A stretch of DNA of 42,488 bases from IMG/VR virus record IMGVR_UViG_2874945390_000011; one strand, written 5' to 3'. Each line of letters opens with the position of its first letter. Position 1 is the stretch's first letter. This DNA comes from a virus (taxonomy: Duplodnaviria > Heunggongvirae > Uroviricota > Caudoviricetes). The translations under genes and the position numbers were made by a program. Below, one piece after another: positions 28,186 to 28,496 of the stretch. The notes under the pieces are model-generated. The model saw only the letters and a list, made by a program, of their open reading frames with translations. It did no database searches and was not told where the DNA came from.

Positions 28186-28260
28186 TGGAGCGGGCAGCGG
28201 GAATCGAACCCGCATCATCAGCTTGGAAGGCTGAGGTAATAGCCATTATACGATGCCCGC
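28186..28260 (-). tRNA. tRNA-Gly (anticodon UCC)
   Basis: Minus-strand sequence GCGGGCAUCGUAUAAUGGCUAUUACCUCAGCCUUCCAAGCUGAUGAUGCGGGUUCGAUUCCCGCUGCCCGCUCCA folds as a cloverleaf with 7-bp acceptor stem, anticodon loop CUUCCAA and encoded CCA. Confidence 0.8.
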
Positions 28261-28263
28261 ATA

Positions 28264-28339
28264 TGGTGCCGACTACCGGAATCGAACTGGTGACCTACTG
28301 ATTACAAGTCAGTTGCTCTGCCTGCTGAGCTAAGTCGGC
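28264..28339 (-). tRNA. tRNA-Thr (anticodon UGU)
   Basis: GCCGACUUAGCUCAG...ACUGACUUGUAAUCAGU...GGUAGUCGGCACCA; acceptor stem pairs perfectly; anticodon loop CUUGUAA. Confidence 0.8.
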
Positions 28340-28341
28340 GC

Positions 28342-28418
28342 TGGCCCACCACCGAGGACTCGAACCTCGCACCGTCAACTTAGAAGGTTGATGCTCTATC
28401 CGGATGAGCTAGTGGTGG
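28342..28418 (-). tRNA. tRNA-Arg (anticodon UCU)
   Basis: CCACCACUAGCUCAUCCGGAUAGAGCAUCAACCUUCUAAGUUGACGGUGCGAGGUUCGAGUCCUCGGUGGUGGGCCA; 7-bp acceptor stem, anticodon stem UCAAC/GUUGA, loop CUUCUAA. Only 1 nt from the next tRNA, so the 5' boundary is uncertain. Confidence 0.65.
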
Positions 28419-28419
28419 T

Positions 28420-28496
28420 TGGTGGCCCTTGCTGGACTTGAACCAGCGACCTGGCGATTATGAGTCGCTCGCTCTGACCAACTGAGCTAAAGGGCC
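28420..28496 (-). tRNA. tRNA with anticodon CAU (Ile2-like, ileX/ileZ type; Met not excluded)
   Basis: GGCCCUUUAGCUCAGUUGGUCAGAGCGAGCGACUCAUAAUCGCCAGGUCGCUGGUUCAAGUCCAGCAAGGGCCACCA; closely resembles recalled E. coli ileX; anticodon loop CUCAUAA. Confidence 0.7.

Follow-up and report, generated by a model that had tools for sequence, protein, structure and literature searches.

Why does a lambdoid prophage carry its own set of tRNA genes, and whose translation would they serve? This question is raised by a tightly packed tRNA cluster at positions 28186-28496 of a 42,488-nt stretch of caudoviricete DNA (IMG/VR record IMGVR_UViG_2874945390_000011; the window, hereafter, is this whole stretch). 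An initial inspection of the bare sequence (termed here the original prediction) had described four tRNA genes lying between a Q-like gene and the lysis cassette and had proposed that they support the translation of late or cargo genes. From the gene sequences, their surroundings, and the codon usage of the prophage, we consider it rather probable that the cluster is a lambdoid cassette of the same kind as ileZ-argN-argO of phage 933W, which would boost the supply of four scarce tRNAs.

Four tRNA genes and the codons they read

Genes for tRNAs were called with ARAGORN over the whole window and with the Rfam covariance model RF00005 (gathering score 29). Over the 42.5 kb of the window, ARAGORN calls four tRNA genes and no others; they lie on the minus strand in the order Ile2(CAU), Arg(UCU), Thr(UGU), and Gly(UCC), hereafter slots 1 to 4, and all of them match the Rfam model with E-values of 1e-9 to 1e-13 (Table 1). 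Because both methods detect them above threshold, we count the four genes as real tRNA genes, and each is canonical. The spacers, in order along the minus strand, are a, gc, and tat (1, 2, and 3 nt). The outer coordinates, anticodons, and spacing of the original prediction are thus exact, with the strand now given as minus. That prediction would have been refuted by a tRNA scan that failed on the Arg tRNA, whose acceptor stem starts with C; this stem (CCACCAC/GTGGTGG, i.e. C1-G72) was accepted by both programs. When Rfam was run over 27480-28720 with a permissive threshold, only the four tRNAs scored above threshold; the sub-threshold matches in this interval (antisense hits, long-hairpin microRNA models, and a weak isrK-like match) were not accepted.

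Table 1 Features of the tRNA cluster and its surroundings (positions in the window).
Feature	Position	Strand	Basis and remarks
tRNA-Ile2 gene, anticodon CAT	28420-28496	-	ARAGORN (label Met/Ile2); Rfam, 70.5 bits; encoded CCA
tRNA-Arg gene, anticodon TCT	28342-28418	-	ARAGORN; Rfam, 56.4 bits; encoded CCA
tRNA-Thr gene, anticodon TGT	28264-28339	-	ARAGORN; Rfam, 69.8 bits; encoded CCA
tRNA-Gly gene, anticodon TCC	28186-28260	-	ARAGORN; Rfam, 64.9 bits; encoded CCA
Candidate sigma-70-type promoter (pT type)	28506-28534	-	Consensus scan; TTGCAG 28534-28529, 17-nt spacer, TATTAT 28511-28506
Intrinsic terminator hairpin, GCCCGC-TTTAT-GCGGGT + T run	28584-28614	-	Sequence; fold with 13-bp stem and U run
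Long hairpin (~28 bp) in the trailer after tRNA-Gly	27984-28070	-	Fold; comparison
Terminator-like hairpin + T run	27901-27927	-	Scan; ~260 nt after tRNA-Gly
Second terminator-like hairpin, 10-bp stem + T run, just upstream of the holin gene	27547-27573	-	Scan
Q-like late-gene antiterminator candidate, DUF1133 family, 184 aa	28686-29240	-	Pfam DUF1133, E = 3.8e-107
Lysis cassette, whole	26189-27506	-	Pfam and RefSeq annotation
P21-type holin	27506-27291	-	Pfam Phage_holin_2_1
Lysozyme	27291-26794	-	Pfam Phage_lysozyme
Rz	26659-26189	-	Pfam Phage_lysis

We compared each gene with the tRNA genes of E. coli K-12 and of phage 933W. Among K-12 genes, the CAU gene shares 92% identity with ileY, 90% with ileX, 69% with metT and metU, and 62% with the initiator gene metZ; with ileZ of 933W, it shares 96%. 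Because it resembles ileY at 92% but metT at 69%, its assignment as a tRNA-Ile2 of the ileX/ileY/ileZ class, and not as a Met body, appears justified from these sequences, in agreement with the initial view that it decodes AUA. Its acceptor stem (GGCCCTT/AAGGGCC) matches that of ileY exactly, where metT has GGCTACG, and an identical gene was named tRNA-Ile by the PGAP pipeline. The pairs C4-G69 and C5-G68, which reportedly are the acceptor-stem determinants of TilS, are present by inspection of the sequence. The Arg(UCU) gene is 73% identical to host argU and 79% to 933W argN. The identity elements of E. coli arginyl-tRNA synthetase (ArgRS) are A20, C35, U or G at position 36, and A or G at position 73. 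In the window gene, position 20 is an A according to the D-loop ATCCGGATA, the anticodon reads UCU, and G73 serves as discriminator; with C1-G72, U33, and a canonical loop besides, the predicted tRNA appears to carry the elements for charging by ArgRS of E. coli.

The two remaining genes are nearly indistinguishable from host genes: the Gly gene matches K-12 glyT at 75/75 positions, and the Thr gene matches thrU at 74/76 positions (97%), with two substitutions in the D-loop (C16/C20) and an unchanged anticodon arm. By sequence, slots 3 and 4 are copies of thrU and glyT, with the host operon thrU-tyrU-glyT-thrT-tufB as their source. The phage array shares with this operon a promoter of the TTGCAx-17-TAxxAT style but lacks tyrU, the 116-nt spacer, thrT, and tufB, its thrU and glyT copies being joined by 3 nt only. 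This Thr-Gly spacer, TAT (28261-28263), may consist of the host T that follows the thrU CCA and the host AT that precedes glyT, which would fit a deletion of tyrU and spacer from the host operon, although 3 nt are weak evidence. The high identities (Gly 100%, Thr 97%) and a spacer of this possible origin are also what speaks for a neutral explanation, in which the Thr-Gly pair was gained from the host operon by illegitimate recombination beside an older ileZ-argN cassette and persists without a selected function.

As a host proxy for codon usage, we used 86 annotated K-12 core genes (29,635 codons), and the phage side was represented by the window's own genes. The comparison, which had been proposed along with the original prediction, shows a higher summed use of ATA, AGA, ACA, and GGA in the prophage genes, in ipaH, and in the DedA gene than in the core genes (Table 2). 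When the 61 codons are ordered by their phage/host ratio in late genes, these four rank 2nd to 5th, whereas a set of four arbitrary codons would be placed wholly within the top 5 with a probability of ~1e-5; rank 1 is held by AGG, which is partly readable by the same UCU tRNA. Over all phage genes, the four rank 2nd, 3rd, 4th, and 7th. The original idea of codons that are scarce in the host yet common in AT-rich phage and cargo genes is borne out as to the enrichment but not as to composition, given that the prophage has ~50% GC and is weakly biased, not AT-rich.

Table 2 Use of the four codons read by the cassette, per 1000 codons.
Gene set	ATA	AGA	ACA	GGA	Sum
K-12 core genes	2.7	1.2	4.8	6.2	14.9
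Prophage genes	10.1	5.5	13.0	14.0	42.5
ipaH	8.5	13.7	13.7	8.5	44.4
DedA	59.2	0.0	23.7	11.8	94.7
pCP301 entry region (35 genes)	34.3	17.7	21.7	14.9	88.6

A putative transcription unit between the Q-like gene and the lysis genes

Pfam matches on the flanking genes agree with the initial placement of the cluster between a Q-like gene and a lysis cassette. The upstream protein belongs to the DUF1133 family, also passes the Phage_antitermQ model (28.4 bits, cut-off 26), and is 100% identical to a RefSeq 'DUF1133 family protein'; the downstream genes encode a P21-type holin, a lysozyme, and Rz. A closely related annotated setting is found in E. coli FDAARGOS_944, in which a 901-bp stretch with 99.6% identity carries the same annotated tRNA-Ile, -Arg, -Thr, and -Gly genes, in a prophage located between ybhA/modC and pgl that also contains ipaH, DedA, QueH, and hokD.

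The candidate promoter ends 9 nt before the mature 5' end of tRNA-Ile2 and is matched in 933W by an element annotated 'pT; putative tRNA promoter' (TTGCAG-17-TATTAT-9 nt-tRNA). In order to see what is kept among related arrays, we compared 125 of them (120 loci from one IMG/VR slot-2 motif scan, the window, and four annotated loci). Their upstream flanks fall into 12 unrelated families, and in 7 of the 12 the -35 and -10 hexamers are kept in the same register at 8/12 or better, a score reached by 0.8% of other registers. The window element, a candidate pT promoter by its sequence, is thus conserved across unrelated flanks; because the array has its own conserved promoter, it is not tied solely to late transcription.

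The initial description of the cluster as bracketed by terminator-like hairpins was right in part. A strong hairpin is present upstream, between the Q-like gene and the tRNA promoter, but 88 nt away from the tRNAs; it was missed by the consensus scan, and terminators are annotated at the equivalent place in 933W. Downstream, the first site, placed by the scan at 27927-27908, is ~260 nt away from tRNA-Gly. Sister loci keep a terminator at this position, as ...GCC..GGCGGTTTTTT, and it is likely the 3' end of the transcript from the tRNA promoter.

The trailer between tRNA-Gly and this terminator contains a long hairpin. Its region (27900-28185) folds with a z-score of -3.75, and the stem is kept in five sequence variants behind different arrays (the window, L011, L018, L025, and L079), with 4 compensatory pairs and many G-U pairs that are workable only on the minus-strand RNA. 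The hairpin matches no Rfam family and may represent a small RNA or a site of RNase III cleavage. Small open reading frames between the tRNAs and the holin gene (27722-28000 on the plus strand; 27748-28005 and 27926-28141 on the minus strand) have no Pfam match and no RefSeq annotation.

For the Q-dependent late promoter pR', no convincing candidate was found by consensus scan or in the 75 nt from the Q stop codon to the terminator. The stretch from the Q stop codon to the upstream terminator (28586-28659, minus strand) gave the weak isrK-like Rfam match (19 bits, E = 0.18) and could be a short terminated pR' transcript as in other lambdoid phages. Another candidate pR' site is a TACAAT element, followed by a terminator, near 27620-27547.

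From this arrangement, we infer a self-contained unit in which four tRNA genes, preceded by a terminator and by a sigma-70 promoter of their own (pT) and followed by another terminator, lie between the Q-like gene and the lysis genes. The four genes would be transcribed from pT as one precursor, probably also in the lysogen, and, by analogy with 933W, induction would probably add transcription by Q-modified polymerase passing the terminators. RNase P would cut each 5' end, exonucleases would trim the 1-3 leftover nt back to the encoded CCA, and host TilS would turn C34 of the CAU tRNA into lysidine so that AUA is read. The expected outcome is extra gene copies of low-abundance tRNAs reading AUA, AGA (partly AGG), ACA, and GGA. 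Supply would thus be raised where demand is raised, as these four codons are the ones that the prophage and its cargo over-use most compared with host core genes, and a fitness benefit would follow.

Such a cassette has clear precedents. The annotation of 933W (GenBank AF125520, Plunkett et al. 1999) runs from Q through pR'/qut, terminators, pT, the tRNA genes ileZ-argN-argO, and a terminator to cargo and S/R. As in the window, the cassette comes after Q and before the lysis genes on the same strand, with terminators upstream of and after the tRNAs, the same pT hexamers in the same register, a slot 1 that is 96% identical (ileZ), and in slot 2 the unusual C1-G72 argN scaffold (79% identity). 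In contrast, slot 2 has the anticodon UCU in the window and UCG in 933W argN, argO is absent from the window with copies of host thrU and glyT in its place, and the spacers are 1-3 nt instead of 9-13 nt. In addition, the window tRNAs are not followed by toxin genes but by a trailer of ~680 nt with the conserved long hairpin. Phages SfI, Sf6, ST64T, PS3, and P21 carry tRNA genes downstream of Q as well, and an ACA bias has been reported for SfI (PMC3636060). Compared by description, they share with the window the lambdoid niche, a recurrent tRNA-Thr(UGU), and the codon-supply rationale with its measured ACA bias, but have one or two tRNAs (Asn GUU and/or Thr UGU) instead of four. The codon-supply interpretation is therefore the standard published one (PMC3636060; GenBank AF125520) and is not new.

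Conservation of the arrays and candidate beneficiaries

Among the 125 arrays, 69 have the arrangement Ile2-1-Lys(UUU)-2-Thr-3-Gly (numbers are spacer lengths in nt) and 22 have the window's type, Ile2-1-Arg(UCU)-2-Thr-3-Gly, the rest being shorter or variant. Each window tRNA is the commonest allele for its array type, common to 24 to 26 sampled arrays. The Lys(UUU) arrays, e.g. those of UMNK88 and phage PhiR47_1, resemble the window in their four slots, 1/2/3-nt spacing, pT, thrU- and glyT-like genes, and location between Q and holin, and their slot-2 tRNA is homologous to the window's Arg(UCU). They differ in an Ile2 allele of 76 nt (77 nt in the window), in Q and lysis modules of other types, and in a slot 2 with anticodon UUU, C33, U73, and an A51-C63 mismatch, where the window has a canonical Arg(UCU) tRNA. 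At one IMG/VR locus (L086), unrelated DNA with a long open reading frame starts directly after the Gly CCA; possibly, the tRNA-Gly of the prophage served there as the integration site of another element.

Across the 125 arrays, the 1/2/3-nt spacing is conserved and acceptor-stem differences are compensatory, e.g. C6-G67 to U-A in 13 copies of the glyT-like gene and A3-U70 to G3-C70 in relatives of the Arg tRNA. Because the spacing is kept and the stem changes are compensatory, purifying selection appears, from these sequences, to act on the structure of the array tRNAs. A tRNA with the argN scaffold occurs in 1775/5426 complete E. coli genomes (the window's exact allele in 10 records). Neutral capture of the Thr-Gly pair, as described above, is contradicted by this conservation pattern, in which tRNA sequences and spacing persist amid unrelated flanks, and is hard to square with so wide a distribution; we regard it as very improbable.

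The prophage in the window is a decayed, defective Shigella/E. coli lambdoid prophage. Compared with the intact FDAARGOS_944 relative, the major capsid and tail-fibre genes are split (18651-19592 and 3574-4835, respectively), and there are two copies of the insertion sequence IS600 and one IS630-like element (DDE_3 plus HTH), at 29553-30709, 40439-41595, and 37605-38625. One IS600 copy interrupts a DUF1364 gene just upstream of Q.

Several points weigh against a supply cassette serving the late genes. In this window, a late-gene benefit cannot be what maintains the array, given the split capsid and tail-fibre genes and the three insertions (two IS600 copies, one IS630-like element); in such a defective copy, any support for late-gene expression lies in the past. 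The coupling to Q is drawn by analogy with 933W, no pR' having been located by scan or by reading, and expression, processing, and modification at this locus are deduced from the DNA. Other enriched codons (CGG, CGA, TCA, and AAT) have no matching tRNA in the cassette. Moreover, in acquired DNA of any kind with a weak bias, the codons that are rare in the host are those that increase most, such that the match between codons and tRNAs is expected generally and is not specific proof. Finally, the tRNase OLD of P2 has Thr(UGU) and Gly(UCC) as its top targets, which makes another selective force conceivable. On balance, we still favor the supply cassette, and the codon bias together with the detection of the C1 Arg tRNA supports the translational role proposed at the outset.

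The state of the prophage brings in a second beneficiary of the same supply mechanism, namely the lysogen. The array could be expressed constitutively from pT and kept, in defective prophages too, for the help it would give Shigella and enteroinvasive E. coli in translating acquired AT-rich virulence genes (e.g. the type III secretion genes of pINV and ipaH). This would agree with the array's own conserved promoter and with a terminator ~260 nt after tRNA-Gly, upstream of the lysis genes, as well as with an array that is intact despite split capsid and tail-fibre genes and three insertions. Three Ile2-Arg-Thr-Gly arrays are found in each of two species representatives from GTDB (S. flexneri SFBU1023, E. 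coli ECMA0423), and the pCP301 entry region uses the four codons at a sum of 88.6 per 1000, compared with 14.9 in the K-12 core genes. On the other hand, the decay may be too recent for the tRNAs to have been lost, the presence of the commonest alleles (24 to 26 arrays) fits a recent spread, and the cassette family is found in a third of complete E. coli genomes, mostly without pINV. We consider the lysogen an unlikely, though not negligible, main beneficiary.

The identity of the tRNAs suggests a third possibility, in which they stand in for host tRNAs lost to the tRNases of abortive infection. The first tRNA to be cut by P2 OLD is Thr(UGU), followed by Gly(UCC), Val(UAC), fMet, and Pro(UGG) (bioRxiv 10.64898/2026.07.10.737580). 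AriB of PARIS has Lys(UUU), Thr(UGU), and Asn(GUU) as substrates and cuts them at U36AAUC|A41, a change of U39 abolishing cleavage (PMC12409363). Two of the window's four tRNAs are thus the top OLD targets, and phage Thr(UGU) tRNAs do rescue infection (bioRxiv 10.64898/2026.07.10.737580; PMC12445682). The AriB site of E. coli tRNA-Lys is U36AAUCA41; the corresponding stretch of the non-canonical slot-2 Lys(UUU) tRNA in the sister arrays is U36-A-A-G-U-U41, so that position 39 is changed. Known nuclease-resistant phage tRNAs (T5 tRNA-Lys against PARIS; T4, Bas32, and HK446 tRNA-Thr against P2 OLD) are likewise phage-encoded and represent the same isoacceptors (Thr UGU in the window, Lys UUU in sister arrays), but have altered anticodon stems or cleavage sites, whereas the window Thr and Gly tRNAs have host arms.

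Resistance of tRNA-Thr(UGU) to OLD results from an altered CNG pseudo-palindrome or a shortened anticodon stem (PMC12445682), and resistance to PARIS is associated with changes at U39 or A41 of the AriB site (PMC12409363). By the published determinants, neither anti-OLD nor anti-PARIS resistance is seen in the window Thr and Gly tRNAs: the Gly gene is identical to glyT, and the Thr arm (ACUGA-CUUGUAA-UCAGU) is that of thrU, retaining the OLD CUG/CAG (CNG) motif and the AriB UAAUCA. Extra host ThrU protects little or not at all in both OLD papers (bioRxiv 10.64898/2026.07.10.737580; PMC12445682), most sister arrays lack the two Thr D-loop changes, and the canonical-loop Arg(UCU) in slot 2 of the window has not been reported as a prime target. 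The OLD-resistant tRNA-Thr of HK446 was not among the 60 closest records listed for the window Thr, a list that held all 19 records of at least 90% identity. As the window Thr allele is host-like, no experimental result is transferable to it. With the cleavage motifs of the host retained in both the Thr and the Gly copy, counter-defence is not supported by the sequences at this locus, and we judge it improbable.

Besides the tRNA cassette, other features of the window were recorded. The four full-length tRNA genes are internal to the prophage, whose ends lie elsewhere, and their reading as a mark of the attachment site was ruled out. The window starts within a host gene of the PBP family (1-477, plus strand), probably ybhB judging from the ybh neighbourhood of the FDAARGOS_944 prophage. 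The adjacent ipaH gene (1057-2820, plus strand; LRR_TTSS and NEL domains, 587 aa) shares no more than 67% identity with the ipaHb that FDAARGOS_944 has at the same place. The early region encodes QueH, an epoxyqueuosine reductase (32350-33015, minus strand; Pfam E = 1.9e-65) and a second translation-related cargo, which acts on GUN-anticodon tRNAs and not on the four of the array. A gathering-level Rfam match to the sok antitoxin RNA (32117-32292, minus strand; 117 bits) adjoins a hokD-type gene, and matches to isrK (64.8 bits) and C4 antisense RNA (76.3 bits) at 39182-39370 (plus strand) lie upstream of or overlap a Rha-family regulator gene, a region that resembles a P1/P7-style immunity module.

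Anticodon variants and the wider array family

Three anticodons are found on the argN scaffold of slot 2, with UCG in 933W, UCU in the window, and UUU in the majority of the arrays sampled. Genes with UUU (L011 2870-2946, L013 2658-2734, L014 2501-2576, and ~90 further IMG/VR loci among L015-L134) always have C33 instead of the near-universal U33, and mostly an A51-C63 mismatch and U73 as well; they may be decaying or may encode a tRNA-Lys that is nuclease-proof. In five arrays (e.g. L054 and L111), a gene with the thrU scaffold has the anticodon TTT (G35 to U, with A26 to G), and in one array (CFSAN029787; L012 2504-2575) a gene with the glyT scaffold has the anticodon TAC and a damaged 3' acceptor strand. 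It is conceivable, although doubtful in our view, that prophage cassettes re-assign tRNA identity through anticodon changes, mainly at the middle base (position 35). If the variants are functional, lambdoid prophages would retune one cassette to codon demand or to nuclease-proof replacements of Lys, Thr, Gly, and Val tRNAs (the targets of PARIS, OLD, and PrrC), and the Arg(UCU) gene of the window would be one state of a switchable slot.

The feature itself is already known. Identical arrays are annotated in RefSeq and phage records, and the kind is known from 933W and SfI-type phages, although a literature search for the exact four-tRNA array found general precedent only and no dedicated description. 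Only mildly new material is contributed by the three anticodon states of argN, the middle-base variants of thrU and glyT, and the conserved trailer hairpin.

In summary, the window contains a type of cassette that has been described, own promoter included, for Shiga toxin (Stx) and Shigella phages since the 1990s and that standard pipelines call. It serves as a landmark for the point in a lambdoid prophage at which the Q gene gives way to the lysis genes. The wider array family is possibly worth a dedicated study, as Toprim tRNases were recently found to target just these isoacceptors. In Shigella, the four rare-codon tRNA genes have been multiplied, with three arrays in S. flexneri, and this may matter for the expression of AT-rich virulence genes.

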